Shown: positions 5,595 to 57,602 of the stretch, piece after piece | Layout of the letters: each line of letters opens with the position of its first letter | How positions within the stretch are numbered: the stretch's first letter is position 1 | Virus record (IMG/VR): IMGVR_UViG_3300045988_065571 | DNA length: 64,000 nt | Source of the DNA: a virus | Direction: 5' to 3' (one strand) | Made by a program: the position numbers and the translations under genes | The notes under the pieces: model-generated | What the model saw: only the letters and a program-made list of their open reading frames with translations | Database searches by the model: none | Told to the model about the DNA's origin: nothing

Positions 5595-6086
5595 ATGAAT
5601 ACACTTCATCCTACTACTAAGTTAGTAAACGAAGATCAACCGATGACTCTGTTTGGTGAAAAAACTCCCAGAGCGGTGATCTATAAGAGTGAATCTCACA
5701 AGTTGCATCAGGCTTTCTGTGTAAAAGAAACCAAAGTTATTCATCAGGGTATGCCGGTAGCTTTGGATACCGATGGTAATATCGAACCGTATATCCCGGG
5801 TGGAGATGGCAGCCAGGTTTATCTGGGTATAGCTGTAACTGATAACATTAATCCTGCTTATCAGGCTCAAAGAAATTTCCCCGTAGAAGTAACTGTAGCC
5901 GTAGAAGCTTTCATGGTTGTAAACTGGGTAGCTAAAGAGGCTATGGAATGTGGTTATGTAAAACCCACCGATAAACTGTTGATTGACCGTTTCATCACTG
6001 CTGAAACTTCAGATGAGGAAACAAAATTCATTAGCATCGTACCGGCTGATGAAGCTAATGATATTATCCAGGTATTGGTACGCTAA
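5595..6086 (+). CDS. Head decoration/cement-like protein (DUF2190-like)
   Basis: 163 aa, immediately upstream of the major capsid gene. GMPVALDTDGNIEPYIPGG..VYLGIAVTDN resembles the DUF2190 pattern. Confidence 0.4.
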   Translation: MNTLHPTTKLVNEDQPMTLFGEKTPRAVIYKSESHKLHQAFCVKETKVIHQGMPVALDTDGNIEPYIPGGDGSQVYLGIAVTDNINPAYQAQRNFPVEVTVAVEAFMVVNWVAKEAMECGYVKPTDKLLIDRFITAETSDEETKFISIVPADEANDIIQVLVR

Positions 6087-15500: not shown

Positions 15501-15651
15501 TAGATTCGAAACTTTCATCGGAGAAGATGGTCAGGAATACGTAAAAGTAAAAGTAGTAGAATACGAAATGCTTAGTGTCATGGCTCTCGAGGGAGTTAAG
15601 TTATTGAGAAAAGAATTCGAAGACTTTAAGAAACAATTAAACAATAAGTAA
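9571..15651 (+). CDS. Giant modular tail fibre protein (2026 aa) with a C-terminal intramolecular chaperone domain
   Basis: Contains three copies of a fibre module of about 95 aa (..NDFT..LK.KLDGIEEHANYITKVSQL ... DTLKE(I/L)A.AL.NDPNFAT.IT). Has long runs of an 18-aa periodic repeat (..I..E...R..AD..L). Has seven PA(S/A)T..KAGVQTAADKK(K/L)FDS motifs and two NPH(G/N)VT(K/R)AQ(V/L)GL motifs. The C-terminus, SDGRLKSQVENL...VGTIAQSLEEIEPLLV, is typical of Peptidase_S74 chaperone domains. Confidence 0.85.
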   Translation: MYVSKYYTCEEIDQRLLQGYYDDSLAHGFVGTLKEFWAFFLSIANKVDKKEGWDLSENNFSDELLEKLNGIEEHANYVTKVSQLENDLKYQTQEQVEKYIHDLVDGADDALDTLKELAEALNNDPNFATNITNRLTELRTQLEAEVTRAKNRENELASQVKIVNDNLVNSVNTLNATITKVVQDITRMIEAINARIQKVEDRVGDLEVETDNNLTEAKEYAKELVEKEAAERRAADEKLTEAVHKVQLDHTKDIADLNNKILTEASERANADVALESKLNTEISDRKTADQELEAKINAEAAARTAQDEALHQQIVKEASDRQNADNGLQQNITQEAQNRQNADTVLQNNIDNEKETRIAQDEILDHKIEDLKTQAGTDKTELLEKLEQEKQERIAGDEDLDNRKVDKREGYSLTKNDFTDILKAKLDGIEEHANYITKVSQLINDAGYQTEADLQAAIEKIIGEAPEVLDTLKEIADALGNDPNFATTITKKLAAITEQLNQEITNRTEADAQVQANVDKEVSDRKEADTALEAKLKEYVDNEVDKITGNTDGIQASLNKEIQDRKDADAALQAAITKEETDRKAADAALDTRVTANATKIQELALSIQDAVNTVKNELQAKIDALQTEVNANKANIQRNTDRLNDQITKEAEDYAELKGMVNAEAEARANADTNLKSQVDKVNIDLNTEISKREAGDTVLQQNIDKEISDRTAADTLLDNKFTGLMNTESAARANEDEKINARIDQEVKDRKAGDDALSTRIDNINSGVTSSLAELSEKVTNNTTAIQTEVERAKAAEQAIKDSLTTAMENHKDDLVAISKDISDEAQSRLQEDIKLQNNIDTETLNRTQADTLLENKIAQEISDRVQAVENLNNRKVDKVDGKELSSNDFTDLLKAKLDNIQEFANYITKVSQLENDSNYQNAEQVEAAIQKVIGSAPGVLDTLEEIAQALGDDPNFATTITNKLTELKGIIDKEISDRTAADEQVTQKFTELSTTLNATVSELRTFVTETRSELLTKTQAQDELIAKNTANIQRNLELIQGLQSNQNTGYLEIKELLNTEIEARKAEDIRIEAKVDKNTQDLKTESEERKAADKVLQDNIDAEEAARIAADDALGKRIDKEIEDRKAADTALENKFNGITNGLDERLQKEEATSNALPDTVITSHKDLVIDDTSITMPYTIADKGEENIYTDGREDSKVLPAATKDKAGLHSAADKKLFDSLPNQLLIPNTGKVERNTYLVAIKRELVQKIEGEYKKPAGINYLEQVSIPASTKDLAGVQTAADKKKFDSLPERIITNLPQVNQEADRMTLSLTFHTFSKGNGVYINEDGTLPIPASTAEKAGVQTAADKKKFDRITTTNFALGDVTPNATEVEIAATKTKIEDGTVEQNPITLPASTAEKAGVQTAADKKKFDSIPGTILTSIKTTIHNNNSVVLQVNQSSKSEGVYAPVEVKAFEINAATKTTAGAMTAGDKTNLDETLPNAIAKEVQDRKDAIAALESSSNASIKALEKKHDDFVATKGKANGFASLDGNGLVPSSQLPSYVDDVIEGYATYEVSETGKLSNIKLYSDPDHTNPITGESGKIYLNITQDEPPYQFRWSGTQFVDSNTSSLILGEVTGTAYDGAKGKSLADWRKSLSDNLTKYSHIKDQNAWTRNATEVRLNFECSSFGSPKVLSEYQEPIPASTKDLAGVQSAADKKLFDSIPGTIIISGKGVVQQEDKVWVQISKSTKAEGVYGEATTQTLEILAANANRAGVITVEMFNKLNSGLNGDITNALNEAKAYTDAAKTALNKLISDESSARQAADTTITNNLNAHINNKSNPHGVTKAQVGLGNVENLAPANMPVSTAQATAIADAKAAGTKAQTDLSTHANRKDNPHNVTRAQLGLATTDQVVFAKTTAASGFWKESDGRLKSQVENLNHTLDQICNIPTVHFKMNGKYQVGTIAQSLEEIEPLLVSENNIPAFQVPNQSRFETFIGEDGQEYVKVKVVEYEMLSVMALEGVKLLRKEFEDFKKQLNNK
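9721..12510 (+). repeat. Three dispersed in-frame copies of a module of about 290 nt inside the fibre gene (about 9721-10010, 10795-11085 and 12220-12510)
   Basis: The protein blocks align by eye: WDLSENNFSDELLEKLNGIEEHANYVTKVSQLEND..., YSLTKNDFTDILKAKLDGIEEHANYITKVSQLIND..., ELSSNDFTDLLKAKLDNIQEFANYITKVSQLEND.... Each ends in DTL(K/E)E(L/I)A.AL..DPNFAT. Confidence 0.8.
13178..14885 (+). repeat. Seven spaced copies of the PASTxxKAGVQTAADKKKFD motif, each heading a domain of about 60-70 aa
   Basis: For example, 13585-13644 and 13765-13824 encode identical peptides but differ at eight synonymous third positions. Confidence 0.8.
15310..15651 (+). other. Predicted self-cleaving intramolecular chaperone (Peptidase_S74-like) domain of the fibre
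   Basis: Ser1914-Asp-Gly-Arg-Leu-Lys begins a 113-aa C-terminal block that matches the S-D-x-R-x-K ... iGliAQe.e...P.lV pattern. Confidence 0.6.
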
Positions 15652-15652: not shown

Positions 15653-17752
15653 ATGGCAGAAATAGCAACTTGGAGTGCTATTCTGAATAAGACCGGCCTT
15701 GGTAAGACCTCTAATGAGTGCCCTACCAAGGCTGAGTTGTTAGCACTCAATAATGGTAAGGACTCCAATGTTGACAAGGTTATTGTAATTAGTAATGCTG
15801 CTAGCTACGGTAACAATGAATGTGTCAAGTTAGAGGATATCAATGCCGAGCAATGGATTTATACATTCGAATGGAAACCAGATGGTAATCCTTCTTTTAA
15901 TGCTCCAGCTACTGGTGGAGAATATTATGTTGGTGCCTATAATTCAAACCGAACTAAATATGTAAATGGTAAAGCTAACCCTAACATAGTTGAATATGTT
16001 AGTGAGCTTTCTCGGAATAATGGTCCTTCTTGGTATAGCTATAGTAGTGATAGTACTAAACGTATCGTATCTAATAATACATCTACTAATAGTAGATCTC
16101 ATACTATGGTTATTACCCAGAAGTATTCAGGTAAAACCATACAGGCAACCTTTACCCAGGCAGCAGGTAGAAAAGTTTATTCTTCATGGAGTTATAACTG
16201 TAGAGTAGACAAAACTTCTTTCAGTTACAGTGGAGGTCAATCTAATGTAACTGCTAAGAGTGCAAGTAGAACTTATACTTGGAATGGTCAAGGAAGTAGT
16301 TATACCGAATCAGAAACAGCTACTGTAAGAGTTTCTAGTCCGGCTTCTATTAGTGGGAATAGTATTTCTATCCCGAGTAATAGTGATTCTGCTAGAAGTT
16401 TTACAGTTACTTTCGATTTCCCAACTGCTACAGATCAGACTATCTCAATTTCTCAGGAAGGGGGCCAAGTATCTTATGTAGATCATCTATCTATAGATCC
16501 TACTACTAAGAATGTATCTGGAAGTGGTCAAACCTTTGATGTGATAGTAAATGCCAACTATGATAGGTACTTGAATGGAGTATGGCAAGAAAATATAAAA
16601 TCTCAGTATACTAATGCTACTGTAGTAAGCGGGTCTTCATCCGACATTACTATAACTCGTACTAGTACTGGGTGTAGTATTAAGGTAGCACCGAATCCCA
16701 ATGAGAATAGTTCTAGGACTTATGTAGTAGAATTTACTTATGATTCAGCTACTCCAGTTCGATTAACTATTACTCAGAATGAAGCAGTAGTTAGCTACCC
16801 TAGCGAGGGATATTACTTAGGTCAATCTAGATCTTCTAGTGGATTTACCACTTCAGATTTGAATGTTACTAATGGAGATAGGGATGGAGGTTCTTTTACT
16901 GTATACTATAAATCCTATCGTACTAAATATGTAAATGGAAGCCAGGCAGGTTTAGAACCAGTAACTCCTAATATTGCACCAGGAGATTTTTGGTTAAATA
17001 CCTTTATAGACCCAAGACCCAATAGTGATAACGTATATACCGTTGAGGTTCGTTATCAAGCTAATAATCTTAATACTGAACGAAGTACTAGGATTACAGG
17101 ATCTAATGGCGGTGCTACTACGGTATACACTAATTTCTCTCAGGAAGCTAGATTAGATTACTTCTTTACTTTTGATAGTAATGAGGGTCCTACTGAAAAA
17201 TCCCTTAGTACAGATGCTGCAGCAAATGATTTCCCTTTTGTAAATATCTATTCTAGGGATTCCGTAGGAAGAGCTATAGGTTTTAGTATCTCTGGTGTTG
17301 TACCTTCGTGGATAACTTGTGAAATACACGAAAACGGTGTATCAGTACCAGCTGAAATTGGAGTTAGATTGGATGAGAACCCAACTCATGCAAACAGATC
17401 AGCTACTATTACTCTGGTACAATCTCATAGTGGTAAAACTCTAACCATTAAAGTATCACAAGCAGGTAGGTTCTATAACTTAGAGTTACTAGGTTCGGGA
17501 GTAGTTTATTTATGTGATGATGCAATAAAACCAACAGAGGGTATTTCTCCAAATACTAAATTTGCAACTCAATGTCCTACTTTATTAAAACACCAGGGAT
17601 TTTTAACGGTGAATAATTCAGGTTTAGGGAGTATGGGTAGTCAAGTAGGAAATGGAGATAGGGTAAACATTTATACTTATAGACATGATGGTACGTGGAG
17701 ATTTGTTACTAGTTTTATTTTAATCCAAGGTGACCAAGCAGTATCTTGGTAA
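15653..17752 (+). CDS. BACON-like / Ig-like repeat protein; probable fibre-associated glycan-binding or receptor-binding protein
   Basis: At least four beta-sandwich-like units end in the BACON-style signature: SRSHTMVITQKYSGKTIQATFTQAAG, ARSFTVTFDF..DQTISISQEGG, SSRTYVVEFTYDSATPVRLTITQNE, NRSATITLVQSHSGKTLTIKVSQAG. Starts 2 nt after the fibre gene. Confidence 0.55.
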   Translation: MAEIATWSAILNKTGLGKTSNECPTKAELLALNNGKDSNVDKVIVISNAASYGNNECVKLEDINAEQWIYTFEWKPDGNPSFNAPATGGEYYVGAYNSNRTKYVNGKANPNIVEYVSELSRNNGPSWYSYSSDSTKRIVSNNTSTNSRSHTMVITQKYSGKTIQATFTQAAGRKVYSSWSYNCRVDKTSFSYSGGQSNVTAKSASRTYTWNGQGSSYTESETATVRVSSPASISGNSISIPSNSDSARSFTVTFDFPTATDQTISISQEGGQVSYVDHLSIDPTTKNVSGSGQTFDVIVNANYDRYLNGVWQENIKSQYTNATVVSGSSSDITITRTSTGCSIKVAPNPNENSSRTYVVEFTYDSATPVRLTITQNEAVVSYPSEGYYLGQSRSSSGFTTSDLNVTNGDRDGGSFTVYYKSYRTKYVNGSQAGLEPVTPNIAPGDFWLNTFIDPRPNSDNVYTVEVRYQANNLNTERSTRITGSNGGATTVYTNFSQEARLDYFFTFDSNEGPTEKSLSTDAAANDFPFVNIYSRDSVGRAIGFSISGVVPSWITCEIHENGVSVPAEIGVRLDENPTHANRSATITLVQSHSGKTLTIKVSQAGRFYNLELLGSGVVYLCDDAIKPTEGISPNTKFATQCPTLLKHQGFLTVNNSGLGSMGSQVGNGDRVNIYTYRHDGTWRFVTSFILIQGDQAVSW

Positions 17753-40741: not shown

Positions 40742-41698
40742 ATGAGTAAAATCACTAATGAATTTAAAACCAAGCTCTACAATTATTTTATTAAGAGCTT
40801 GGGCGCTTATCAATATAAACATGGTTGGATGAAATTACCCGTATGCCCATTCTGTCATAGGGAACATAAGATGGGGATTAATCTTTCTATGTACCGTACC
40901 AATTGTTTTAGATGCAATTATCATATGAATCCTGCTCAACTAGTAATGGATGTTGAAGGATTTGATACTTATGCAGAACTTTTAAAATTTCTAGATAATG
41001 GAAACTTTACAGACAAAGCTTTCTCAGAAGAGAAGGTTGAATTATCCGATGCTAAGCCCGTCTATCTTCCAGATGGGTTTAAACTCATTAATCAAGGAAC
41101 ATCACAAGTTGCAAGAAGCATTAGAAGTTACATGTCGAGCCGTGGGTTCACTATCGAAGAATTATCAAAACACGGTATCGGATATGTTGCCACTGAGGGA
41201 CCTTTTTTTGGGTACCTCATCATACCCTATTATTATAAGGGCACGCTCAGGTATTACAATGCGAGAAATGTTATTGGACAGGGCCCAAGATACAATAATC
41301 CAAATAAAGATATTACGGGACTTGGAAAGGAATTTATTATCTTCAATCAAGATGCCCTCGACATGTATAGTTCGATATTTATCTGTGAAGGAGCAATCAA
41401 TGCACTTACTATGGGAGACAGGGCTATTGCCACCATGGGTAAGGCGGTATCAAGATATCAATTGAATGGGCTAATAAAATCCCCTTGTCAACGGTATATA
41501 ATCCTGTTGGATTTTGATGCTCAAAAGTATGCTATAGATTTAGCTTTAAAACTTATACTTTATAAGAAAGTAAAAGTAGTTTTCTTTGAAGACTCTCGGG
41601 ATGTAAATGATTTAGGTAAAAAAGCAGTTCTTAGAAAAGTATATAGAACTAGATACACTACGTATCAAGAACTTATTAAACTTAAAAATTTGCTATGA
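40742..41698 (+). CDS. DNA primase (zinc finger plus TOPRIM)
   Basis: Zinc motif CPFCHREHKMG...CFRCNYH. TOPRIM motifs IFICEGAINALTMG and ILLDFDAQKYA. Confidence 0.8.
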   Translation: MSKITNEFKTKLYNYFIKSLGAYQYKHGWMKLPVCPFCHREHKMGINLSMYRTNCFRCNYHMNPAQLVMDVEGFDTYAELLKFLDNGNFTDKAFSEEKVELSDAKPVYLPDGFKLINQGTSQVARSIRSYMSSRGFTIEELSKHGIGYVATEGPFFGYLIIPYYYKGTLRYYNARNVIGQGPRYNNPNKDITGLGKEFIIFNQDALDMYSSIFICEGAINALTMGDRAIATMGKAVSRYQLNGLIKSPCQRYIILLDFDAQKYAIDLALKLILYKKVKVVFFEDSRDVNDLGKKAVLRKVYRTRYTTYQELIKLKNLL

Positions 41699-42210
41699 TG
41701 GAAGATAATGTACCTGGTTTCCCAGGGTATCATGTAACTAGGAGTGGTAATGTATATTCTAGGAGGGTAGAGAGATCTCCTAATAAATTTAGAGATTGGC
41801 ATTTATTAAAAACTACCCTAAAGAGAAATGGGAGAGTTAAAGTTGTTTTATATAGGAGTAGTAAAAGTTACACTCTAAGCCTTAGTAGATTGGTAGCTTT
41901 AATACATGTATATAACCCTAATCCCTCTATGTTTAATGAAGTAATGCACATAGATAATAATCCTTTAAATAATCATTATAAAAATCTACAATGGGGAACT
42001 CATTCCATGAATATGCAACAAATGATATTTGAACAACGCAGAAGATCTTTTAAGACTACTCAAAACCCCAATTGGCAAAAATTTAAGATATCTCTAAGAA
42101 AGAAAAGGAGATTGGATAGGTTGATAAAATTAGGGAGAAGTAGAATTTATATAGGTAAGCGGTTAAAAGTATCTCGTAAAACCATCTATAACTCACTTCA
42201 TAGAGGGTAG
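41695..42210 (+). mobile_element. HNH homing endonuclease (NUMOD4 / HNH_3-type with a C-terminal HTH)
   Basis: VPGFPGYHVTRSGNVYS (NUMOD4-like). HIDNNPLNNHYKNLQWGTHSMN (HNH_3). C-terminal IGKRLKVSRKTIYNSL is an HTH. ATGA overlap with the primase gene. Confidence 0.75.
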
Positions 42211-42418: not shown

Positions 42419-43236
42419 GAGACCCCTCTATTCATATAACTAAGCATCAATTCGAAAAAATACTATCTCAGTTAGAGGTATATAATTTTCCGATTGATGC
42501 TTTCTTTGTTATTGCCCGTAAGGAAGCAATAAATACTAGAGTTGTAGTTGTTACAAACAATAAGACAACTAAGAAAGTTTCTAACATTTTACTAGCATCC
42601 AAGGGAGATGCTGCTTTAGTTGCTGATATTATATATGCAACTCGTATAAAACTAAAGCATAGAGGAGTTAGAAAAATAAGAGAAACAGAACCAAGAAATT
42701 GGGCGGTATGTAAAAAGATAGCTGAGCTCTGTAATCAATTCTGTGAAGATTTTCAATTGGATACCCGGGAAGGTTTTATTAAATATATCGAACTAGGTAT
42801 CAAGAAGATGGACGGTAATTATAATAACCTCCTAAACAGATTATCTTCTATGTCAGAAAAGATTTCAGATTTATATTCTGCTACATTGGAAATGGAAGAT
42901 GATTCTGGTAATGCTAAAGCTATCCATGATTACTTCATAAAAAGGGTAGCAGATGTTACTGGTATATACGAATCATTTGTTAATCAACCAGATAAGTATA
43001 TACACTTTGTAAGGCTAGATAAATTCTTATCTGAGAAAGGGTGGGACCCAATTCAATTCATAGATGCTCAATTTGAATCCCTTGCTTGGTGTAATGGTTT
43101 ACCTGAACCCAGTCAGATGTATAATGACAAGGCTATCGAAAGGTATAATAAATACCTATTTAAACATAAGAATCATTCACAATCAGAGGAACCTAAAGTA
43201 GAGGGAAGCCTCTGGTCAAAAATTAATAAATTATGA
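42415..43236 (+). CDS. Hypothetical protein (273 aa)
   Basis: Dominant-strand ORF, overlap-coupled on both sides. No motif recognised. Confidence 0.45.
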   Translation: MRDPSIHITKHQFEKILSQLEVYNFPIDAFFVIARKEAINTRVVVVTNNKTTKKVSNILLASKGDAALVADIIYATRIKLKHRGVRKIRETEPRNWAVCKKIAELCNQFCEDFQLDTREGFIKYIELGIKKMDGNYNNLLNRLSSMSEKISDLYSATLEMEDDSGNAKAIHDYFIKRVADVTGIYESFVNQPDKYIHFVRLDKFLSEKGWDPIQFIDAQFESLAWCNGLPEPSQMYNDKAIERYNKYLFKHKNHSQSEEPKVEGSLWSKINKL

Positions 43237-43850
43237 AAGCTTTTAAAAATCGTTTAGAGGAGATGGCAGAAGCCACTGTAAATGCTTTGGATTATTCCGA
43301 TAGCAAAGTAGAATACCCCGATATTTCTATAGTTCAGAAATGGCCTAAGGAAATAATCTTGCCCTTGTATGATTTATATAAAAATACTCGGTATTCAGAA
43401 TTAACCTCAATCCTTATGTATACTCAGCATCAGGCTAGATTTGGAGAAATAGGGGAATTGATGCTGGGTATCGGATTAGTAGAAATGGTACATTATGATA
43501 AACTGGGAGACTTCTTATTAAAGGCTTCCGATGTAATGGATACGGATATACCAGGAAATAATCAGTTAACTGTACATCCCCTAATAGATCTTGGTACTTC
43601 GGCAGAATCAGCTTTAAGATTATCCCTACAAGCAGAAAAAGAAACTCTAGAGGAATATTATAAAGTATTTGATTCTCTGAATAAAGAAGAATATATAAAG
43701 AGAAGCGATTATATTCCAGTTACATATCTTATCCAGAAATTCATTGCTGATGAGGAATATCACATTACTCTTTTAAAGAAAGCTTTGAAAGAATACGAGG
43801 ATTCCGATGATGAACCCAAGAAATGTAAATCAGTAACAGTAATCATATGA
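43233..43850 (+). CDS. Ferritin-like diiron-carboxylate protein
   Basis: Two ExxH motifs (LVEMVHYDKL and DEEYHITLL), each preceded by a helix carrying a conserved Glu (RFGEIGEL; LQAEKETLEEYY). This is the four-helix-bundle metal-site pattern. Confidence 0.45.
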   Translation: MKAFKNRLEEMAEATVNALDYSDSKVEYPDISIVQKWPKEIILPLYDLYKNTRYSELTSILMYTQHQARFGEIGELMLGIGLVEMVHYDKLGDFLLKASDVMDTDIPGNNQLTVHPLIDLGTSAESALRLSLQAEKETLEEYYKVFDSLNKEEYIKRSDYIPVTYLIQKFIADEEYHITLLKKALKEYEDSDDEPKKCKSVTVII

Positions 43851-46165: not shown

Positions 46166-46359
46166 AAATGATATGGGCTATGTTCAAGGTATACCTTAAC
46201 AACCCAAATTATTATGTGAAACAAGAGGACATACTTGCTAATGTATGCGGCAATGGAAACAGGGATGTAAGGAAGATGATGAACTCTCTTGGTATTTACA
46301 AGGGAAATCCCTCAACATTAACTTATGGCCAACTTTTAAAACAATGTAATATAATATGA
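46153..46359 (+). CDS. Hypothetical protein (68 aa)
   Basis: Overlaps both neighbouring genes on the dominant strand. Confidence 0.35.
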   Translation: MQKIEMIWAMFKVYLNNPNYYVKQEDILANVCGNGNRDVRKMMNSLGIYKGNPSTLTYGQLLKQCNII

Positions 46360-46910
46360 ACAAATTCAGATTTATCAAAGTAAGAGACGTAAAATCTCCC
46401 TCAAGAGGAAACGAAGGAGATGCAGGTTTAGATTTCTATATACCTGAAGACTTAACTCTACAGGATTTAGTAAAGGCTAATCCACAGTTAATATTTCATT
46501 GTGAAATACCTGAACCTGGTAAAGTAACACTTGAATATAATTCAAATAACCAGGTACAAGTAATTTACATTTCTCCATTTACCAGAATACTTATCCCATC
46601 GGGTATCAAAGGTTTATTAGAACCAAGGTCTTCTATGCTGATGGCAGCAAACAAATCTGGTATATCAACTAAGAAAGGGCTTATCTATACTGCCGAGATA
46701 GTAGATTCTCCCTATACTGGAGAGATTCATATCGGTATATATAATACTTCTCATGAGTTTCAAATAATAGAAGCTGGAACCAAGTTAGTACAGTTTATTC
46801 ATGTACCTATATATCTTACAGAACCAGAAGAAGTAATCAAAGAAGAGTTTGATGGAGATGCTTCAACTTGGGGAACAAGAGGTAATAACGGATTCGGATC
46901 AACCAATTAA
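46356..46910 (+). CDS. dut: Trimeric dUTPase (dUTP diphosphatase)
   Basis: All classic motifs are present: GDAGLDFYIP, PRSSM, IVDSPYTGEIHIGIYN, and C-terminal RGNNGFGSTN. Confidence 0.9.
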   Translation: MNKFRFIKVRDVKSPSRGNEGDAGLDFYIPEDLTLQDLVKANPQLIFHCEIPEPGKVTLEYNSNNQVQVIYISPFTRILIPSGIKGLLEPRSSMLMAANKSGISTKKGLIYTAEIVDSPYTGEIHIGIYNTSHEFQIIEAGTKLVQFIHVPIYLTEPEEVIKEEFDGDASTWGTRGNNGFGSTN

Positions 46911-46921
46911 TATCATAATAT

Positions 46922-47641
46922 ATGGCAACTTTAGATGAACTAGCGAATAGGATATCGGTATTAGAGAATCGGTATTCAACTTTAAACAGTGTAGTGAACG
47001 GACATGCTACCGAGATACATAATCTTGATACTAGATTAGATACTGCAGAATCTAAACTAAATAATCATGAGGGACGGATTGAAACTCTAGAAGTTAAAGT
47101 AGAGGATCACGAAAGAAGATTGCAACTGATAGAGAATTCTCATATAAAGTATACTGTATCAAGAAAGGTAAAATACCCCAAGAAAGCAGATCAAGGATTC
47201 TATCTATATCTCCCTGAAGATCTTACTATTGATATTCTAATGGAATACAATAATGGAGTAATCAAACAGAAATGGAACTGGTTGAATAGAATCTTTAATC
47301 CTCAGGGATTCGGTAAAGTATCATTCGACTTAGATAGAAACAGCGAAGGACATATTAAAACCATCGTTCTTGGTCAGAACACTAGGTTATTAATCCCAAC
47401 TGGTATTCATATTGAAGAATTCACTCCAGTTAAATCTGTACTGAAAGCTGCAAATGAAGAAACTAATTCTATCAACAGTGGATTAGTATACGGTATAGAA
47501 GTACTTGGTCAAGTTCCAGGAGATGAAGTGGTGGTAAGTGTATTCAACCCAACTTCTGAGATTATTGGAATCGAAGCTGGAAGCGTATTGGTTCAAGTAT
47601 TACATTTATTCTCTTATCATACAGTACCAGAAAAAGAATAA
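46922..47641 (+). CDS. Coiled-coil N-terminus fused to a degenerate dUTPase-fold domain
   Basis: The first 80 aa or so are heptad-like (LDTRLDTAESKLNNHEGRIETLEVKVEDHERRLQLIE). The remainder parallels the dut gene (DQGFYLYLPEDL, LLIPTGIHI, VYGIEVLGQVPGDEVVVSVFN, GSVLVQVLH) but lacks RSS, the Asp of motif III and the GFGS tail. Confidence 0.55.
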   Translation: MATLDELANRISVLENRYSTLNSVVNGHATEIHNLDTRLDTAESKLNNHEGRIETLEVKVEDHERRLQLIENSHIKYTVSRKVKYPKKADQGFYLYLPEDLTIDILMEYNNGVIKQKWNWLNRIFNPQGFGKVSFDLDRNSEGHIKTIVLGQNTRLLIPTGIHIEEFTPVKSVLKAANEETNSINSGLVYGIEVLGQVPGDEVVVSVFNPTSEIIGIEAGSVLVQVLHLFSYHTVPEKE

Positions 47642-47646
47642 TTACT

Positions 47647-48489
47647 ATGGATATTTCTAATCTGAAAGAAAAAGCCCCTGAAATCAAACAGGGGCTTGAA
47701 CTTGAGAATATGTATGAGATTGGTTATCGCCAATTAGACTGTTATAAACCTTTGGAAAGGTTACCCGAATATCCCATGGATATTAACAGTACTAAAAACC
47801 AATCTCTTATGAAAACCCTTATATCTCAAGTAGTAGAGGAGTTAATGGAGGGTTATGAATCTACTTCTAATATAAATGATATTCTAGAAAACAAAGGATG
47901 GAATACCAATTTATATACTGATGTAGAAGAGATTCAGATAATCAACAATCTACAGAATGCTAATGAAGAACAAGCAGATGCAATAGGATTCTTCTTATCA
48001 GCTTTGATATATGCTAACATATTGCCAGAGGATATCTATAGTTGGGCAAACAAAGAACTTACTAAAGATCAAAAGGCAGTAGAAAACTTAGAGGATGTAA
48101 TGGCATTCGGTATTCATATGATTTTAGAGATGGATACTATTGATAGTATATTCAAAAACTTTAGGCTAATATCTGAAACAATCGAGGATAAAACTTCCGA
48201 GTATATAAAGGGATTCAAGGAAATGAGTCCAAATTTGCATACCGATGAGAAAAATATTTTGTTTCAGATAGTGTATGTTTTGAATCTTGCTAGAAATACT
48301 CTTAAGAATCGTACATGGAAACAGTCACCAGTAATAACTAAAGAACTAGAATTCCAGGATAGGCTGGTAGAGGCATTCTATTATTATATGGGATTCCTAT
48401 CAATAATGGGATTTACTCCTACGGGTATCTATGAGCTGTATTTCAAAAAAGAGCGGTTGAATGAATGGAGAATCACTACACAATATTAA
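47647..48489 (+). CDS. All-alpha NTP pyrophosphohydrolase (dimeric dUTPase / MazG-like superfamily)
   Basis: VVEELMEGYES and NANEEQADAIGFFLSALIY are EExxE/D metal-binding helices. The C-terminal LKNRTWKQSPVITKELEFQDRLVEAFYYYMGFL...YELYFKKERLNEWR matches the K.WK ... Y..K...N..R pattern of the dUTPase_2 family. Confidence 0.55.
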   Translation: MDISNLKEKAPEIKQGLELENMYEIGYRQLDCYKPLERLPEYPMDINSTKNQSLMKTLISQVVEELMEGYESTSNINDILENKGWNTNLYTDVEEIQIINNLQNANEEQADAIGFFLSALIYANILPEDIYSWANKELTKDQKAVENLEDVMAFGIHMILEMDTIDSIFKNFRLISETIEDKTSEYIKGFKEMSPNLHTDEKNILFQIVYVLNLARNTLKNRTWKQSPVITKELEFQDRLVEAFYYYMGFLSIMGFTPTGIYELYFKKERLNEWRITTQY

Positions 48490-48504
48490 TGAAAGGAGGT
48501 ACTT

Positions 48505-49419
48505 GTGTCGGGTTGGAATAAAAAATTAAACGGATTAGAGCTTAATACAGAAGAGCAAATCCATTCATTAGAATTTGCTACTTCACAAGAAGCATGGGAA
48601 AAGTTAAATGAAGGATTTTTAAGACTAGAACCATCTTTATTTGCAAAAGGTGCTACCGCAAACAGTGGAGTAGCTGTGGTATATAACGTATTTATAAAAA
48701 TACGTAAAGCTTGGGTAGACCCAGATTTTGATTATGGTAGATGTTTCAATTATAAAGAGACTAAGTGGACAAGCTTACTGAACAATTACATTGATTTCAA
48801 TAAGCTTGATTTATTGCGTAGTAAGCTGAGAGTACTAAAAACCAAGTATAATCAGAATTACAACGTTACTTATATGTTTAATAATCATCACGATAACGGT
48901 AAACAATGTTTAATTGCTGCTACATTCTCCAAACGATTTGGGGAAGACATACCTGTTATTACAATGGTAATCAGGGCATCCGAGATAACAAAAAGATTAA
49001 TCTTCGACTTCTTACTAATACAACGAATGGCGGAATATGTGTACGGACCAGAACAATCAGTACAAATCAATTTATTTGCCACTCAAATGTATGGGAATGT
49101 AGAAACACTTCTGATGTATCATACTCATAAACCTTTGAAGAAGGTATTAAAGGGAACTGATAAAGAGAATTCCTGGATAAAGAGGTTGAATGAGGTATTC
49201 GATAAATTTCAAAACGGTAAAGAGAAAGATTTCTCTAGTTTTAAGGTATTCTTTAGAAGTTTTAAAGTGCTTCGACCAGATTTATATAGGGAAACATATA
49301 AATCTATGAAAGCAAAGGAATTACTTCTTGAATATGAAGATATCGAATATCCCGAGAATGTAATCTCTTACTCTCAACGTAAAGCATATAAGAAGAAACT
49401 TTTAAAACAGAAGAAATGA
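48505..49419 (+). CDS. Hypothetical protein with a possible divergent thymidylate-synthase-like fold (weak call)
   Basis: GTG start preceded by AAGGAGG (48493-48499). KQCLIAATFS...VIRASEITKRLIFDFLLIQRMAEYV loosely parallels the PC..qf...QRS.D...L....A layout of TS-fold enzymes. ATGA overlap with the downstream TS-like gene. Confidence 0.25.
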   Translation: MSGWNKKLNGLELNTEEQIHSLEFATSQEAWEKLNEGFLRLEPSLFAKGATANSGVAVVYNVFIKIRKAWVDPDFDYGRCFNYKETKWTSLLNNYIDFNKLDLLRSKLRVLKTKYNQNYNVTYMFNNHHDNGKQCLIAATFSKRFGEDIPVITMVIRASEITKRLIFDFLLIQRMAEYVYGPEQSVQINLFATQMYGNVETLLMYHTHKPLKKVLKGTDKENSWIKRLNEVFDKFQNGKEKDFSSFKVFFRSFKVLRPDLYRETYKSMKAKELLLEYEDIEYPENVISYSQRKAYKKKLLKQKK

Positions 49420-50162
49420 GAATTTATAGCAGTAGTTATGAGTTAATGTCTGAAATGGGCAGAGAACTCAACAGTTATGGTCAAACTGTAAAACCAAAGA
49501 CTTACCAGAATAAGAATATTGAAGGTAATGAAGATTTTGTAACTAAAGAGATCATTTGCCAACAATATTGCTTAACTTCTTTGCAAGATCCAACGTGGTT
49601 ATTCTTCTATTCAAGGTCTAGGGAATGGGCAGATGCTGAGTTCCAAGAAAGGATTAATACTTCTGAGGTAATTAACCCGGGCAAAGCTTGGGAATTAAGA
49701 AAAGACTTATGGGAACAGTTTTTGGTAGGTGGTAAATTTGATTACACCTATAATGAAAGAATTTACCATGTTATCAAAGACGTAATTAAATTACTTAGGG
49801 AGGATAATGATACTCGTAAAGCAGTACTCCCTATATTTAATGGAGACCAGGAATCTTTAGATACTTTCTGGTATGATGGAAGTAGACGTATTCCATGTTC
49901 TATGTACTATGATTTCCTTATCCGAGAGAATAGTAAGGGAGAGAAGGTATTACACATTTGCTATCACCAAAGAAGTTCGGACTTTGTTACTCACTTTGGT
50001 AATGATGTATATCTTGCATGGAGACTAATGGAACATGTAGCTAAAGAAGTAGGAGTAAAACCTGGTTATTTATATCACACCATAGATTCATTACATGCTT
50101 ATCAAAAAGACTGGGATAAGTTATCCAGTTCTCTAAGAGTATTCGAGGATACTATCATATAA
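49416..50162 (+). CDS. Thymidylate synthase-fold enzyme (ThyA / deoxypyrimidylate hydroxymethylase family)
   Basis: DTRKAVLPIFNG...RIPCSMYYDFLI...LHICYHQRSSDFVTHFGNDVYLAWRLMEHVA...YHTIDSLHAYQKD parallels the ThyA blocks sRR.i.s.wNp / PCH..~qf / yQRS.D..lG.pfNi / GD.HiY. The catalytic Cys is included. Confidence 0.65.
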   Translation: MRIYSSSYELMSEMGRELNSYGQTVKPKTYQNKNIEGNEDFVTKEIICQQYCLTSLQDPTWLFFYSRSREWADAEFQERINTSEVINPGKAWELRKDLWEQFLVGGKFDYTYNERIYHVIKDVIKLLREDNDTRKAVLPIFNGDQESLDTFWYDGSRRIPCSMYYDFLIRENSKGEKVLHICYHQRSSDFVTHFGNDVYLAWRLMEHVAKEVGVKPGYLYHTIDSLHAYQKDWDKLSSSLRVFEDTII

Positions 50163-50233: not shown

Positions 50234-50274
50234 AAGGAAGTAGGTCTGGGAAGATATACTTCCTTATTTTATTT
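50234..50274 (+). terminator. Rho-independent terminator between the nucleotide-metabolism genes and the DNA polymerase gene
   Basis: aaggaagta (50234-50242) pairs with tacttcctt (50257-50265), followed by attttattt. A smaller hairpin, tcatttt/aaaatga, lies at 50193-50209. Confidence 0.55.
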
Positions 50275-50287: not shown

Positions 50288-52594
50288 ATGGAAACGAAAT
50301 ATAAGATTATAACCAATAAACAAGAGCTAAAGAAACTTATACAGTGTTGTAAGCAAACTGGTTATGCTTCTGTGGACTTTGAAACAAATGCAGAGCCAAT
50401 ATATAACAAATCTTTTAAACCAACTATATTATCAGTAACTTTTCAACCGGGTTTTGGATGTTCTATACCTTTAGATCATTTCGAAACTGAAAAGTATACT
50501 TCTAAGGGATGGAATTGGAAAAAGATGCTTCGTAAATTTGGTGAAGAGGTAATTGAAAATCCAAATGTAGTTAAAGTTGCTTGGAACTACAAATTCGATG
50601 ATCAGATATTTCAAAAGTATAATATCTATTATCGAGGAGCATGTTTGGATGGTATGCTTGCTAAATATGTATTAAACGAAGAAAAACCTCATGATCTTAA
50701 GTCAATGGTAAGAAGGTATTTACCAGAATATGGGGATTATGAGAAGCAAGATAAATTCGATAAGATTCCCTGGGATAAAAAAGAATTAGAACCACTTTGT
50801 CATTATGGATGCCAAGATACAGATTATACTCTTAGGTTAATGTTATTCTTTGAGAAAAAGTTAATTGATCTGGGTTTATACTCCGTATACCGTAACCTTT
50901 TCATGTGTAATTCTCGGGTACTTACTTCAGTAGAAAAAGAGGGTTTATATGTAGATGTTGATTTCAATAAGAAATTATTAGACGAATATCTACCAAAGAT
51001 TGAGAATGCTAAAGATATCATATATAATCTTCCTAGAGTAAAGAAGTTTACTAAACAGTATAATCAATCCAAAATAGATAAGTATATTGCTAGCTTAGAA
51101 GAAGAGATAGAAAATTTGGACCCAGAAATAGACAAAAGAAAAATACAATCTAGGGAACAAAAAATCTCTAATATTCGAGCAGGAATCTTTACTACAAAGA
51201 AAGAGAAGGATCTTATAAGGATGGTAAACCTTGGTAGCTCAACTGATTTACCTCAATTGATGTATTCTGATATTGGTTTTAAATACCCGATCATTAAGTA
51301 TACGGTTGATAGTAAAACAGGTAAAGAGACTAATAAACCAAGTACGGATGAAGAAACTCTTATCAATCTGAGACTAAAGGTAAAAGACCCAGAATCACCT
51401 AAAGCAATATTCCTTGATCGTTTACTAGAACTAAGAGGTTTAGAGAAAATGTATAAAACCTATATATTAGGCTGGTCAGAAAAGATTCAAGATGATAATA
51501 GGTTACATGGTAGATACAATATACATGGTACTGATTCTAATCGTTTTAGTTCTGCAGACCCAAATATGCAACAAATACCTAAGACTTCAGTAGACCCCAA
51601 TATAAAGAAACAACTACTAGCTCCTCCCGGATATTTATATATGGCTTTTGACTACTCTCAAGCAGAGTTAAGAATGATGGCTCATCTATCTGGAGATGAA
51701 ACTTATCTTAAGGCTTTTAGAGATGGAGTAGACCCTCACTTATCTATTGCAGCGGCAAAATACCATGTATCAATTGAAGAAGCAAGTAAGGCTTATGATG
51801 ATGAAAACCATCCAGATCATAAATTATGGAAGAACCGAAGGAAACAGGCTAAACAAATTGCATTCGGACTTATTTATGGTATTGGAGATGCTTTATTAGC
51901 AGTAAAACTATCCGATCCAAAAGCTGGTATTATAGTTACAAAAGAAGAAGCACATAAAGAAATGGAAATCTTCTTTAAACAACATCCCAAAATCCTTAAA
52001 TTTAAAGAAAAACAAGAGAGATTCCTTCGTAAGCATGGGTATTATATCCAATTATTTGGTACTAAAAGGAGATTACCACAAATATATTCTCATGATAGGC
52101 AAGAGGAGGCTTATGCTATTAGATTAGGTCTTAATTTCCCTTGTCAGGGAGCAGCTGCAAATATGACTAATTTTGGAGCTATTCTTGTTTATTGGTTAAT
52201 GAGACAAGGTAAATTACCAATGATGAAAGAAGCCTGTACAGTACATGATGCAGTATATATGTATTCTAAACCAGAAGATATAAATACCTGGACTGTATAT
52301 ACCATTTGGAATATCCTACGTAACCCAAGTACTAAGAAATATTTTGGTTTTCAAGTTGATGACGTAGATATGGATATGGATTTTACAATTGGTAGGTCTA
52401 TGGCAGAAGAATTACCATTTATTCCAGGATACGATTATAATAAGATGCTTCAACCAGATTTTTCAGTAGAGGAATATATGGAAGAGCATAAGAAATATAA
52501 GCATATACACATCAAACAATTCAAAGAAAGGTTTAACAAACAAATAAAGAAGTATGAAGAAGATTTTAAACGGACCCACGGTATGGAGAGCTAA
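50288..52594 (+). CDS. Family A DNA polymerase with a 3'-5' exonuclease domain
   Basis: Exo I SVDFETN, Exo II WNYKFDDQIF, Exo III YGCQDTDYTL. Pol motif A FDYSQAELRMMAHLS, motif B RRKQAKQIAFGLIYGIG, motif C TVHDAVY. Confidence 0.95.
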   Translation: METKYKIITNKQELKKLIQCCKQTGYASVDFETNAEPIYNKSFKPTILSVTFQPGFGCSIPLDHFETEKYTSKGWNWKKMLRKFGEEVIENPNVVKVAWNYKFDDQIFQKYNIYYRGACLDGMLAKYVLNEEKPHDLKSMVRRYLPEYGDYEKQDKFDKIPWDKKELEPLCHYGCQDTDYTLRLMLFFEKKLIDLGLYSVYRNLFMCNSRVLTSVEKEGLYVDVDFNKKLLDEYLPKIENAKDIIYNLPRVKKFTKQYNQSKIDKYIASLEEEIENLDPEIDKRKIQSREQKISNIRAGIFTTKKEKDLIRMVNLGSSTDLPQLMYSDIGFKYPIIKYTVDSKTGKETNKPSTDEETLINLRLKVKDPESPKAIFLDRLLELRGLEKMYKTYILGWSEKIQDDNRLHGRYNIHGTDSNRFSSADPNMQQIPKTSVDPNIKKQLLAPPGYLYMAFDYSQAELRMMAHLSGDETYLKAFRDGVDPHLSIAAAKYHVSIEEASKAYDDENHPDHKLWKNRRKQAKQIAFGLIYGIGDALLAVKLSDPKAGIIVTKEEAHKEMEIFFKQHPKILKFKEKQERFLRKHGYYIQLFGTKRRLPQIYSHDRQEEAYAIRLGLNFPCQGAAANMTNFGAILVYWLMRQGKLPMMKEACTVHDAVYMYSKPEDINTWTVYTIWNILRNPSTKKYFGFQVDDVDMDMDFTIGRSMAEELPFIPGYDYNKMLQPDFSVEEYMEEHKKYKHIHIKQFKERFNKQIKKYEEDFKRTHGMES

Positions 52595-53724: not shown

Positions 53725-54114
53725 ATGTATAATTTACAACTTATATCAACTCTAGTAGCTAAGAAGCTTGGTAATAGTATTCCAGGTTTACCCGTAGAAA
53801 ATAAAATCTTGGTATATTCTCCCAAAGAGATTAATACCACTGCTTCTGGTATTATTATTCCGGATATGGTAAAGGAAGGAGTTCCTCGTAAGGGTGTTGT
53901 TATTAAATCTGGTGTAATCACAGAAGAATATCAAACTTACAAGGACCACGTGGAAATCGGTCGTATAATCGAATATGGATTGTATGCTGGTAAAGAACAT
54001 CAATTCGATAAAAACCTCTTGCCAGAAGAATTACAACCTTTTTATGATAAAGGATTATTTACTGTACTGGCTTTGAACGAAATATCTTATTCAGAACCCA
54101 ATAACTTAGATTGA
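53725..54114 (+). CDS. groES: GroES-like co-chaperonin (T4 gp31 functional analogue)
   Basis: KILVYSPKEINTTASGIIIPDMVKEGVPRKGVVIKSGV....VEIGRIIEYGLYAGKE parallels GroES (kvlV...e.e.kT.gGI.lP.sa.ek...G.VvavG ... v.vGD.V.f..y.G.e). Confidence 0.55.
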   Translation: MYNLQLISTLVAKKLGNSIPGLPVENKILVYSPKEINTTASGIIIPDMVKEGVPRKGVVIKSGVITEEYQTYKDHVEIGRIIEYGLYAGKEHQFDKNLLPEELQPFYDKGLFTVLALNEISYSEPNNLD

Positions 54115-56156: not shown

Positions 56157-57027
56157 GAAAACGATATTACTAATAGATGGAGAGAATATACTTCACCAAA
56201 GTTTCCATAAGTTCGAAAAACTTAAGTCTACCGATGGAAAACCAAGTGGAGCAATATTCGGATTTTTTAGATCATTACATGGGTTCTTACATAGGTGGGA
56301 CCCAGATGAGGTTATTATAACTTTTGATAATGGACACTCTCCTTATAGAGATGCTTTGTTACCAGATTATAAGGGACATAGGAAAAATATTTCAGTAGAT
56401 TATGAATCTCTTCAATCTCAAAAACGTATTATTATGGGTATGCTTAAGCTCCTAAGAATTAAATATGTTTTTGATAAGCATAATTCTACTAAATATGAAG
56501 GAGATGATTTCTTAGCATACCTAGTTTTAAATAAAAAACCCACTGAGAAGGTAATCATAATATCATCCGATAAGGACTTTAATCAACTTATCGGTAAAGA
56601 CGTAAAAATAAACAATCCAAGAAAAGATGAGATGATTCATCAGGGTAATTGTAAGGAACTATTCGGATATTCTCCTGAAGAAACAGTAGATTACCTTTCA
56701 ATGGTGGGGGATACTTCGGATGATATCAAAGGTATACCAGGTATTGGTCCTGTAAAAGCTAGGAAAATATTGGACGAATATGGTACTTTGGATAAATTTC
56801 TAGAGCATCATCATCAAACTTCTCATGTAGAGATTGCAGAAAGGAATAAGAAGCTTATAGATTTAAGATTATTTCAAAAAGAAGTACCATTATCCAAGTT
56901 ACCTATGAAAAAGTTTGCTAATAAGGAGATAAAATACAAGAAATTCAAAGAAGTCTGTATCGAATACTCTTTAGCATCCTTTATGACAAATGAATTTATG
57001 AAACCCTTTAAAGATTTGTTATCATGA
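56119..57027 (+). CDS. 5'-3' exonuclease / flap endonuclease (RNase H-like)
   Basis: ILLIDGENILHQSFH, ITFDNGHSPYRDALLPDYKGHR, EGDDFLAYL, IISSDKDFNQL, MVGDTSDDIKGIPGIGPVKARKIL (H3TH). Confidence 0.9.
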   Translation: MNQKTKRRKTMSKKTILLIDGENILHQSFHKFEKLKSTDGKPSGAIFGFFRSLHGFLHRWDPDEVIITFDNGHSPYRDALLPDYKGHRKNISVDYESLQSQKRIIMGMLKLLRIKYVFDKHNSTKYEGDDFLAYLVLNKKPTEKVIIISSDKDFNQLIGKDVKINNPRKDEMIHQGNCKELFGYSPEETVDYLSMVGDTSDDIKGIPGIGPVKARKILDEYGTLDKFLEHHHQTSHVEIAERNKKLIDLRLFQKEVPLSKLPMKKFANKEIKYKKFKEVCIEYSLASFMTNEFMKPFKDLLS

Positions 57028-57602
57028 AAAGAATTATGTTTGTAGGACCTAGTGGAATAGGAAAAACCACTTTAGCAAAGTTTATAGAAGGTAAATATGG
57101 TATACCCTTTATTTCTGGTAGTATGACTGACTTAATGCCAGATACAAAAGAGATGCACCATGCCGAGTTTTTACACCAAGAATGTGGAGAACTCATAAAC
57201 AAGGATTATCAGCTGTTGAATCTGAGAAATAAGCTTTTTAAGGATAAAGAATCATTTGTAACTGATCGTAGTTATGTAGATTTAGCAGCTTATTTCATAT
57301 ATAAACAATCTACTAATATCCCCGAATGTGAAGTAGATGCTTTCTTAGATATATGCAAAGATCTTACAGTTCAACAATGTGATTTATTAATATACCTTCC
57401 CTTGAGTATGTACAATATGAAAGAATGGCCAATGGAAGACAATAAGAAGAGAATCATAAATAGATATTATCAGGTTCAGATGTCAGATATAATGGGTAAC
57501 CTGTTAACTCAGTGGAGTACTTTAAGTGTAATAGATATATTAGTAGTACCCCAATTAGATTTCTACGACAGAATACACATGATAATGTCAAGATTGGATT
57601 AA
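57024..57602 (+). CDS. P-loop deoxynucleoside / deoxynucleotide (dNMP) kinase-like protein
   Basis: Walker A FVGPSGIGKTTLA, and a DRS motif (VTDRSYVDLAAYF) as in dNK-family kinases. Confidence 0.55.
   Translation: MKRIMFVGPSGIGKTTLAKFIEGKYGIPFISGSMTDLMPDTKEMHHAEFLHQECGELINKDYQLLNLRNKLFKDKESFVTDRSYVDLAAYFIYKQSTNIPECEVDAFLDICKDLTVQQCDLLIYLPLSMYNMKEWPMEDNKKRIINRYYQVQMSDIMGNLLTQWSTLSVIDILVVPQLDFYDRIHMIMSRLD

Follow-up and report, generated by a model that had tools for sequence, protein, structure and literature searches.

What do five tightly packed nucleotide-metabolism genes do directly upstream of a phage DNA polymerase gene and, if they serve to alter a base of the phage DNA, which base is it? 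The question is raised by IMG/VR virus record IMGVR_UViG_3300045988_065571, of which a stretch of 64,000 nucleotides, here called the window, was analyzed. A first-pass annotation, made from the letters alone, had proposed a pathway for a non-canonical thymidine (or cytidine). Base modification is the best reading, given a thymidylate synthase (TS)-fold enzyme that is not ThyA (O5), a pyrophosphatase of the T4 gp56 family (O3), a second TS-fold protein (O4), and the conservation of a core; the thymidine version is disfavored by Asp197 of O5. We propose, with about even confidence, that the block supplies the nucleotide precursors in a C5-hydroxymethyl-type cytidine pathway that feeds DNA, as in T4.

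All five open reading frames (ORFs) of the block lie on the + strand and are separated by 11, 5, 15, and -4 bp. The tight packing and the ATGA junction of the last two genes, reported in the first-pass annotation, stand as described. The block and the two other genes needed for the argument are as follows (aa, amino acid residues).

46356..46910, + strand: O1, 184 aa, trimeric dUTPase with all five motifs
46922..47641, + strand: O2, 239 aa, N-terminal coiled coil and degenerate dUTPase-fold paralog, without motif V
47647..48489, + strand: O3, 280 aa, dimeric-dUTPase/MazG-type (T4 gp56 family) NTP pyrophosphatase
48505..49419, + strand: O4, 304 aa, divergent phage-restricted TS-fold family
49416..49419, + strand: ATGA overlap of the O5 start codon and the O4 stop codon, read directly in the sequence
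49416..50162, + strand: O5, 248 aa, predicted cytosine-type TS homolog (R143/S147/D169/D177 subtype) that lacks the C-terminal lid of ThyA
50288..52594, + strand: family A DNA polymerase (PolA), directly downstream of the block, which would need to accept a modified dNTP
57024..57602, + strand: O6, P-loop NMP-kinase-like protein with the Walker A sequence GPSGIGKT

Base Specificity of O5

O5 matches the Pfam family Thymidylat_synt (PF00303; E 1.3e-12, 47.8 bits vs. a cut-off of 24.3), and its IPCS, HQRSSD, and DSLHAY motifs were all verified, which bears out its earlier description as a clear TS-fold enzyme with the catalytic Cys. That description had left the residue equivalent to ThyA N177 as undecidable by eye within GND. 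The residue is now placed as Asp. In a pairwise alignment with T4 gp42 (~24% identity over 114 aa), D197 of O5 falls on D179 and C161 on C148, and a MAFFT alignment of E. coli ThyA, the XP12 TS homolog, SPO1 gp29, T4 gp42, an RB69-type protein, CPD4_75, and O5 gives the same equivalence to gp42 D179 and ThyA N177. The numbering of the ThyA sequence was verified with the residues listed in PMC13326640. The codons concerned are:

49896..49898, + strand: O5 Cys161, equal to ThyA C146 and gp42 C148, catalytic nucleophile
50004..50006, + strand: O5 Asp197, equal to ThyA N177 and gp42 D179, base-specificity residue, where Asp means cytosine
49887..49889, + strand: O5 Arg158, in place of ThyA L143, unchanged throughout the O5 and CPD4 clades

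At ThyA positions 143/147/169/177, the MAFFT alignment reads L/H/D/N for ThyA, N/P/D/D for the XP12 homolog, D/N/D/N for SPO1 gp29, D/T/D/D for T4 gp42, E/T/N/D for the RB69-type protein, and R/S/D/D for both CPD4_75 and O5. None of the four O5 residues (Arg158, Ser162, Asp189, and Asp197) varies in an alignment of 30 sequences from two clades, or in any TS homolog that adjoins an O4-family gene. The substitution N177D switches the substrate of a TS homolog to dCMP (PMC13326640), and in metaviromes Asp177 together with a non-His residue at 147 marks the TS homologs on cytosine-modified contigs (PMC8670742). Thus, Asp197 indicates that O5 is of the cytosine rather than the uracil type, and the candidate base becomes a modified cytidine; a thymidine of the SPO1/ViI/PhiW-14 type is disfavored. 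O5 was rejected as a dUMP hydroxymethylase on the same ground, position 177 being Asp.

The catalytic apparatus appears intact. C161, Y112, and R186 are the equivalents of ThyA Cys146, Tyr94, and Arg166; Ser167, Asp169, His207, and Tyr209 of ThyA are conserved as well, and the folate contacts W80 and D169 (D189 in O5) are retained. The changes relative to ThyA are N177D, H147S, L143R, and R127K. O5 misses all NCBIfam ThyA cut-offs by more than 100 bits, its best TS equivalog score being 50.6 bits vs. a cut-off of 174.55; T4 gp42 likewise fails these cut-offs. In a phmmer search of the PDB the order is AfhB (1e-9), MilA (2e-4), and ThyA (4e-3 or weaker), and Foldseek ranks AfhB and MilA ahead of ThyA for the AF2 model (predicted local distance difference test, pLDDT, 83). 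The best PDB match, 9iqu/9iqc, was deposited as 'thymidylate synthase' and is the Mosigvirus 5-hydroxy-dCMP synthase AfhB. The change D169N marks the flavin-dependent 5-hydroxy-dCMP synthases (PMC13326640). O5 retains Asp169 and so was rejected as such a synthase despite this match. By its residues, then, O5 is a predicted cytosine-specific TS homolog that is neither ThyA, nor a 5-hydroxy-dCMP synthase, nor a dUMP hydroxymethylase of the SPO1 type.

What product would such an enzyme make? The C-terminal segment of ThyA serves active-site closure over folate and hydride transfer. Some 45 C-terminal residues that ThyA and the XP12 homolog possess are absent from O5, gp42, and the RB69-type protein in the MAFFT alignment; O5 ends ~20 residues past the H207-x-Y209 motif, and ThyA ~55 residues past it. 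The missing lid favors hydroxymethylation over methylation.

O4, a Second TS-Fold Family

The TS-like nature of O4 is not seen in ordinary sequence searches: there is no Pfam, NCBIfam, or PDB match (PDB by phmmer and profile, Pfam with 62 members), and BLAST finds no match between O4 and O5. It emerges from structure and from profiles. A Foldseek search of the PDB with an AlphaFold model built from the alignment of 62 family members (pLDDT 92) places MilA on top (4e-6), followed by AfhB, T4 dCH, and many ThyAs, with TM-scores of only 0.38-0.53. Profile-profile comparison of O4 with TS homologs (hhalign) gives E 7e-6 and a probability of 84%. These matches sustain the first-pass description of O4 as weakly TS-like, and the model makes O4 a predicted member of the TS superfamily by fold only. 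Close matches in BFVD are uncharacterized gut-phage proteins and a protein of Pseudomonas phage PMBT14.

The hhalign alignment pairs O4 Tyr83, Cys135, Arg157, Glu160, and Asp168 with ThyA Tyr94, Cys146, Arg166, Asp169, and Asn177, respectively. Across the 62 sequences, Tyr83, Cys135, Arg157, and Asp168 are invariant, and Glu160 is present in at least 90%. Two of these codons are:

48907..48909, + strand: O4 Cys135, aligned to ThyA catalytic C146, family-invariant
49006..49008, + strand: O4 Asp168, aligned to ThyA N177 and gp42 D179, family-invariant

From this pattern O4 appears to be catalytically active, with C6 of a cytosine nucleotide as the point of attack, and Asp168 would make it of the cytosine type as well. 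With E160 at the ThyA D169 position, O4 is not of the D169N 5-hydroxy type. Neither the 62-sequence alignment nor hhalign reveals conserved equivalents of the partner-subunit arginines R126/R127 in the O4 family. Since each TS subunit takes these arginines from the other, O4 may plausibly pair with O5 in a heterodimer. A C-terminal helical extension of ~95 aa carries a conserved Arg251, and the longer family members have no informative domain fusions. Tandem duplicates of O4 occur in MT121964 (L001:4106-5095 and 5088-5873) and in L096 (8001-9014 and 8992-9768), where numbers with the prefix L denote the loci compared; both copies keep all putative catalytic residues, with Glu160 as Glu or Asp.

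The family comprises 139 clusters at 50% identity. Among GenBank phages it occurs in 13 records, all of them gut contigs or Clostridium perfringens phages. A survey of 185,579 species genomes yielded just 3 matches, of which two lie on contigs of ~80 kb assigned to metagenome-assembled genomes and one on a 5.7-kb contig. On these counts the family appears essentially phage-restricted. The O4-like gene of phage CPAS-15 (MN417334) bears the label 'colanic acid biosynthesis glycosyltransferase', an apparent mis-annotation.

It is possible, though in our judgment unlikely, that O4 represents a new catalytic branch of the TS fold that carries out an undescribed reaction on a cytosine nucleotide, for example, formation of a different C5 adduct or Cys-assisted deamination of 5-hydroxymethyl-dCMP. 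The Flandersviridae/Gubaphage group and CPD4/CP3 would then carry an undescribed DNA base, and the divergent C5-methyltransferase homolog described below might act on that base, not on plain cytosine.

The Pyrophosphatase Genes

O3 scores above the cut-off of Pfam dUTPase_2 (PF08761; 24.8 bits vs. 22.9) and matches phrog_12184, nucleotide pyrophosphohydrolase, at 6e-17. Its acidic metal-binding motifs are intact: ExxE (E65, E68) and ExxD (E108, D111). Five O3-family members share E64/E65/E68, E107/E108/D111, the sequence LKNxxWKQ, and a C-terminal K..N..R....Y as invariant features. The first-pass assignment of O3 to the all-alpha dimeric-dUTPase/MazG-type pyrophosphatases is thus sound. T4 gp56 matches the same Pfam family.

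O1 is the canonical trimeric dUTPase that it had been taken for. It matches Pfam dUTPase (PF00692) above cut-off at E 1.8e-13 and phrog_135, dUTPase, at 1.4e-24; the NCBIfam match is to the dut superfamily (8.5e-17, below the equivalog cut-off). Motifs I-V are read in the sequence as DAGLDF, PRSS, IVDSPYTGE, KLVQF, and RGNNGFGST. O1 was also considered as a dCTP deaminase and rejected, the DCD matches being marginal only. O2 is a paralog of O1 (34% identity, E 8e-22) in which the Asp of motif I, the RSS of motif II, and the Asp/Tyr of motif III are replaced, and the protein stops before motif V. Its degenerate catalytic motifs had been recognized earlier, and the comparison with O1 agrees. An N-terminal coiled coil of ~75 aa accounts for coiled-coil Pfam and PHROG matches on residues 2-80. 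O2 was not found in MT121964, L096, L087, L097, CPD4, or the sister clades L043/L050/L080. Since the catalytic motifs are lost and the gene is present only in this sub-lineage, O2 was rejected as a third active pyrophosphatase. It follows that the argument of the first-pass annotation, in which three pyrophosphatase-type genes spoke for base replacement, is unsound; the trio is not conserved.

A Conserved Core beside the Polymerase

Which of the five genes travel together? The order in MT121964 is helicase, O1, O3, O4, O4', O5, and PolA, with O6 further on (52% identity to the O6 of the window). In L096 the order is dUTPase, dUTPase_2, O4, O4', and TS. L087 lacks O3 and has O4, a GroES-like gene, TS, an ORF with no assigned function, a zinc dCMP deaminase, and PolA. 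L097, a 2.1-kb contig, has dUTPase_2 and then O4. Phage CPD4 has a weak P-loop protein, dUTPase_2 (PF08761, 2.5e-11), O4-like, O5-like, and PolA genes; in CPD4 (L002, L098) the core is accompanied by a thymidine kinase and a dCMP deaminase, and no Asn177-type TS was found there. Because O2 is absent from all relatives compared, the conserved core consists of O3, O4, and O5 beside the polymerase gene. O4 appears always to accompany an O5-type gene. The retention of this core next to PolA across distant phages makes a base-modification pathway the best reading.

Around the core there is variation. The sister clades have an extra ORF of ~175 aa (L043:7908-8444; L050:8882-9403), without similarity to window genes, either in the O4-O5 interval or in the one from O5 to PolA. 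In loci chosen for O4 identity of at least 90%, O1 (~62%) and O3 (~45%) are far more divergent, a comparison biased by the selection on O4. This divergence suggests that the pyrophosphatase genes may be exchanged mosaically.

Two further observations concern genes near the core. A GroES/Cpn10-like gene lies in the replication module of the window (53725-54114), and in L087 a Cpn10 gene (1012-1323) lies between O4 and TS. The MT121964 ortholog of PolA (L001:9001-12279) has 1092 aa vs. 768 aa in the window and aligns in two pieces, which suggests an intein or other insertion.

Proposed Pathway

From the observed gene content, folds, residue equivalences, and O3-O4-O5 conservation we infer the substrates, the product, and its incorporation into DNA, whether complete or partial; the individual steps rest on family membership and active-site residues. 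O3 would hydrolyze dCTP (and/or dUTP) to the monophosphate. Cys161 of O5 would add to C6 of dCMP, with cytosine selected by Asp197, and O5 would transfer the one-carbon unit of methylene-tetrahydrofolate to C5. Given the missing lid for hydride transfer, the exocyclic methylene would most likely be quenched by water to yield 5-hydroxymethyl-dCMP. A kinase, perhaps O6, and the host nucleoside diphosphate kinase would make the triphosphate, which the adjacent PolA would incorporate. O1 would act as an ordinary dUTPase that keeps dUTP low and uracil out. O2, as a non-catalytic, lineage-specific paralog, would stand outside the core. O4 would probably use its Cys for a second attack at C6, on the cytosine nucleotide handled by O5 or on one derived from it, or it would be an obligatory partner of O5.

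Comparison with Known Systems

The closest parallel is the T4 system that makes the 5-hydroxymethylcytosine precursor (gp56, dCTPase/dUTPase; gp42, dCMP hydroxymethylase; gp1, dNMP kinase). Both systems have a PF08761 pyrophosphatase, a TS homolog with the Cys, Asp177, and Asp169 and without the ThyA lid, and a P-loop kinase encoded in the replication module. Several points weigh against carrying the parallel through to a complete hydroxymethylcytosine pathway. An acidic residue at the L143 position correlates with hydroxymethylation and water access (PMC13326640). O5 has Arg there, which is neither hydrophobic as in methylases nor the Asp/Glu of known hydroxymethylases, such as the Asp of gp42; it fits neither class, which leaves the product of O5 uncertain. 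The acidic-residue rule is not absolute, for the XP12 homolog has Asn. The hhalign alignment of O3 with gp56 covers only the C-terminal 46 aa (E 4e-5), with a C-terminal signature common to both, and a role of O3 as a dCTP hydrolase would follow from family membership.

O6 shows no detectable similarity to T4 gp1 (BLAST E 0.75), nor is it similar to CPD4_72. It matches AAA_28 (3e-8), dNK (1.7e-3), and phrog_2107 'thymidylate kinase' (1.6e-7), and the adenylate/(d)CMP-kinase matches are weak only. The dNMP-kinase-like P-loop gene at 57024-57602 that had been noted earlier is thus present, complete with GPSGIGKT, but it is generic and unlike gp1.

Decorating enzymes are not apparent either. The search covered ~83 of ~85 kb of genome, namely the window and ~19 kb of flanking sequence, with Pfam, and included ~20 kb of unannotatable ORFs. 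It revealed no recognizable glycosyltransferase or other hydroxyl-decorating enzyme, no tblastn match to T4 a-gt/b-gt, and no 5-HMUDK-type DNA kinase or aGPT-Pplase. Of the T4 system, then, kinase homology, the glucosyltransferases, and the acidic residue at L143 are not recognized here. Additions relative to T4 are O4, a trimeric dUTPase encoded on its own, and a C5 DNA methyltransferase.

The methyltransferase itself weighs on the same side. A PF00145 C5 DNA cytosine methyltransferase homolog is found on contig ERZ913269 k127_74570, which carries exact copies of window genes; it ends ~50 bp before the window start.

L094:8498-9511 (same genome): C5 methyltransferase homolog, PF00145; ortholog in MT121964 at L090:4682-5677

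The two orthologs are 46% identical and conserve the Cys-containing motif IV and ENLP. Motif IV is DC/SC vs. the canonical PC, and there is no PDB sequence match at E <= 0.01. The substrate of a C5 methyltransferase is cytosine with an unoccupied C5, and complete replacement is therefore disfavored unless the enzyme acts on something other than plain cytosine. In addition, GATC is strongly avoided in window 1-64000 (115 observed vs. 295 expected, observed/expected 0.39, z -10.5), as expected of DNA still exposed to restriction.

Other TS-fold systems match less of the block. The AfhB 5-hydroxy-dCMP synthases (RB69/DLP3/HY126; PDB 9iqu, 9iqc), which are flavin- and O2-dependent, are the closest solved structures to O5 by sequence (E 1e-9) and fold; they share its size, Asp177, and truncated C-terminus. 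Unlike these enzymes, which carry D169N (PMC13326640), O5 keeps Asp169 and Trp80, and no arabinosyl or glycosyl transferase genes were recognized here. Bacteroidota or Clostridium hosts, being strict anaerobes, would hardly support a reaction that depends on O2. MilA, the CMP 5-hydroxymethylase of mildiomycin synthesis (PDB 5b6d, 5jnh), is the top Foldseek match of O4 and near the top for O5; it has the cytosine-specific Asp and hydroxymethylates. It differs in serving bacterial secondary metabolism, in its ribonucleotide substrate, in having Asp at L143, and in lacking polymerase linkage. The dUMP hydroxymethylase pathways of SPO1 (gp29), ViI, and PhiW-14, which lead to 5-hmdU and hypermodified thymidine, show the same logic of TS homolog, canonical-dNTP pyrophosphatase, and kinase, but gp29 has Asn177 (uracil), whereas both O5 and O4 have Asp. 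ThyA has the fold of O5 and, unlike O5, the ~45 C-terminal residues, Asn177, His147, Leu143, and Arg127. Xanthomonas phage XP12, the DNA of which contains 5-methylcytosine, is considered with the first alternative below.

Alternative Explanations

Could the end product be 5-methylcytosine? In such a route, O5 (or O4) would be a dCMP methyltransferase, and 5-methyl-dCMP would be carried into DNA as in XP12. The TS homolog of XP12, which we take to be the dCMP methyltransferase, shares Asp177 and Asp169 with O5, the L143 position of O5 is not acidic, unlike that of known hydroxymethylases, and the ~95-aa helical extension of O4 with Arg251 could act as the lid. Unlike the XP12 protein, O5 lacks the ThyA-type C-terminal segment. 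The XP12 gene adjoins genes for dihydrofolate reductase (DHFR) and dCMP deaminase; no DHFR was found in the window, as had been noticed earlier, or in the ~19 kb of flanking genome. A phage C5 DNA methyltransferase would also be redundant in this case. We consider 5-methylcytosine an improbable product. A role in pool manipulation, or in partial or stochastic substitution, strikes us as doubtful to a similar degree. Here the block would drain dCTP or counter host nucleotide-depletion defenses, and the virion DNA would be essentially canonical, protected at specific sites by the C5 methyltransferase. This explanation accommodates the conserved methyltransferase, the GATC avoidance, and the lack of recognized downstream decorating enzymes. 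It has less to say about why, in distant phages, O3-O4-O5 are so tightly linked to the gene for the replicative polymerase, and Asp177 TS homologs are empirically tied to cytosine-modified phage DNA (PMC8670742). The ready assembly of the phage from ordinary short-read metagenomes, in thousands of contigs, might be added in its favor. However, 5-hydroxymethylcytosine and 5-methylcytosine do not block Illumina sequencing, and so assembly success carries no information.

The simple alternative raised in the first-pass annotation, ordinary dTMP synthesis plus dUTP clearance with O5 as a divergent thymidylate synthase, we hold to be very unlikely. The name given to O5 and to its relatives in databases is 'thymidylate synthase', the dUTPase O1 is of the normal kind, and dimeric dUTPases are common phage dUTP sanitizers (Pfam PF08761 description). 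Against this stand the invariant Asp for Asn177 and Ser for His147, the lack of a C-terminal lid, and scores that fall far short of all NCBIfam ThyA cut-offs; sanitation would also not call for two dUTPases that differ in fold and two TS-fold proteins. In favor of the hydroxymethylcytidine reading, neither an N177-type TS nor DHFR was found in the ~83 kb searched. Hardly probable at all, in our estimation, is replacement of thymidine through deamination. O5 would hydroxymethylate dCMP, O4 (through a Cys-C6 adduct) or a zinc dCMP deaminase would then yield 5-hydroxymethyl-dUMP, and O3/O1 would act as dTTPase/dUTPase in an SPO1-like scheme. With this route, the module and a functional C5 cytosine methyltransferase would be compatible. 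Zinc dCMP deaminases are found in or near the module in L087 and CPD4, and SPO1, by annotation, couples dUTPase/dTTPase with hydroxymethylase. It is also in the nature of 5,6-dihydrocytosine adducts to deaminate readily. Nonetheless, the route has no precedent, SPO1-type enzymes use Asn177 on dUMP directly, no zinc dCMP deaminase was found in the ~83 kb of the window genome, and deamination by O4 is conjectural. Hydroxymethylation of cytidine stays the preferred reading.

Significance

That Asp177 TS homologs signal cytosine modification is already known. What is new is the R143/S147/D177 subtype, its apparently obligatory pairing with an unannotated TS-fold family, and its occurrence in a group of gut phages that is very prevalent. 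If the DNA of these phages has C5-modified cytosine, this would bear on escape from Bacteroides restriction and CRISPR, would affect enzymatic and bisulfite methylation assays and nanopore sequencing of gut viromes, and would affect engineering of the phages. The O4 family is conserved and apparently catalytic, has no annotation, and is tied to a cytosine-type TS homolog in phages of Bacteroidota and Clostridium. The TS fold recently yielded flavin-dependent hydroxylation, and O4 is a concrete candidate for another unexpected chemistry. The cultured C. perfringens phages with the same core make the question directly testable; no literature on DNA modification in C. perfringens phages was found.

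Genome Context and Other Features

The window is a single strand-coherent segment of a phage genome with a GC content of ~35%. Homologs of O5 and O4 with 90-99% identity occur on hundreds of human-gut contigs of 84-88 kb. The structural genes are of the myovirus type (tail tube gp19, baseplate J/W/V), and the replication module includes DnaB, a DnaG-type primase, helicase, PolA, SSB, a UvsX-like protein, FEN, SbcCD, and RusA, with the ~20 kb of unannotatable ORFs downstream. The 'Flandersviridae' candidate family has a median genome of 85.2 kb and Bacteroides and Parabacteroides hosts (PMC8008677), and its members are among the most frequently detected human-gut phages (PMC8008677). The phage matches a 'Flandersviridae'-like Bacteroidota phage of ~85 kb, an assignment that relies on the published description, not on comparing its sequence with that of a named member. 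Neither thymidylate synthase nor dUTPase is mentioned in the text of the paper (PMC8008677). By megablast the block has no match among GenBank phages. Its relatives in GenBank are gut contigs without annotation (MT121964, MT121960, and MT836181); among cultured phages, the module has its nearest relatives in CPD4, CP3, Clo-PEP-1, and CPAS-15 of C. perfringens (O5 43% identical).

Other genes of the window include the following. In the structural module are a BACON-domain protein (15653-17752; PF13004, 1.7e-12) and a 2026-aa protein with a weak Peptidase_S74 match (9571-15651), both of which would fit a host among the Bacteroidota and a virion that binds glycans. An HNH endonuclease gene (41695-42210; phrog_59, 3e-27), probably a homing element, lies between the primase gene and the downstream replication genes. 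A 205-aa protein (43233-43850) with a borderline ferritin-like match (PF00210, E 4.7e-5, 23.8 bits vs. a cut-off of 24.5) is encoded between a helix-turn-helix-like ORF and the superfamily 2 helicase gene.

As to the composition of the window, ATGCAT is nearly absent (1 observed vs. 9.9 expected), and CpG is depleted (rho 0.46) without an excess of TpG/CpA; CGCG occurs 0 times and GCGC 3 times. Between O5 and PolA, at 50248-50264, there is a terminator-like hairpin followed by a T-run, and the region contains 6 terminator-like sites vs. 2.1 expected from shuffles.

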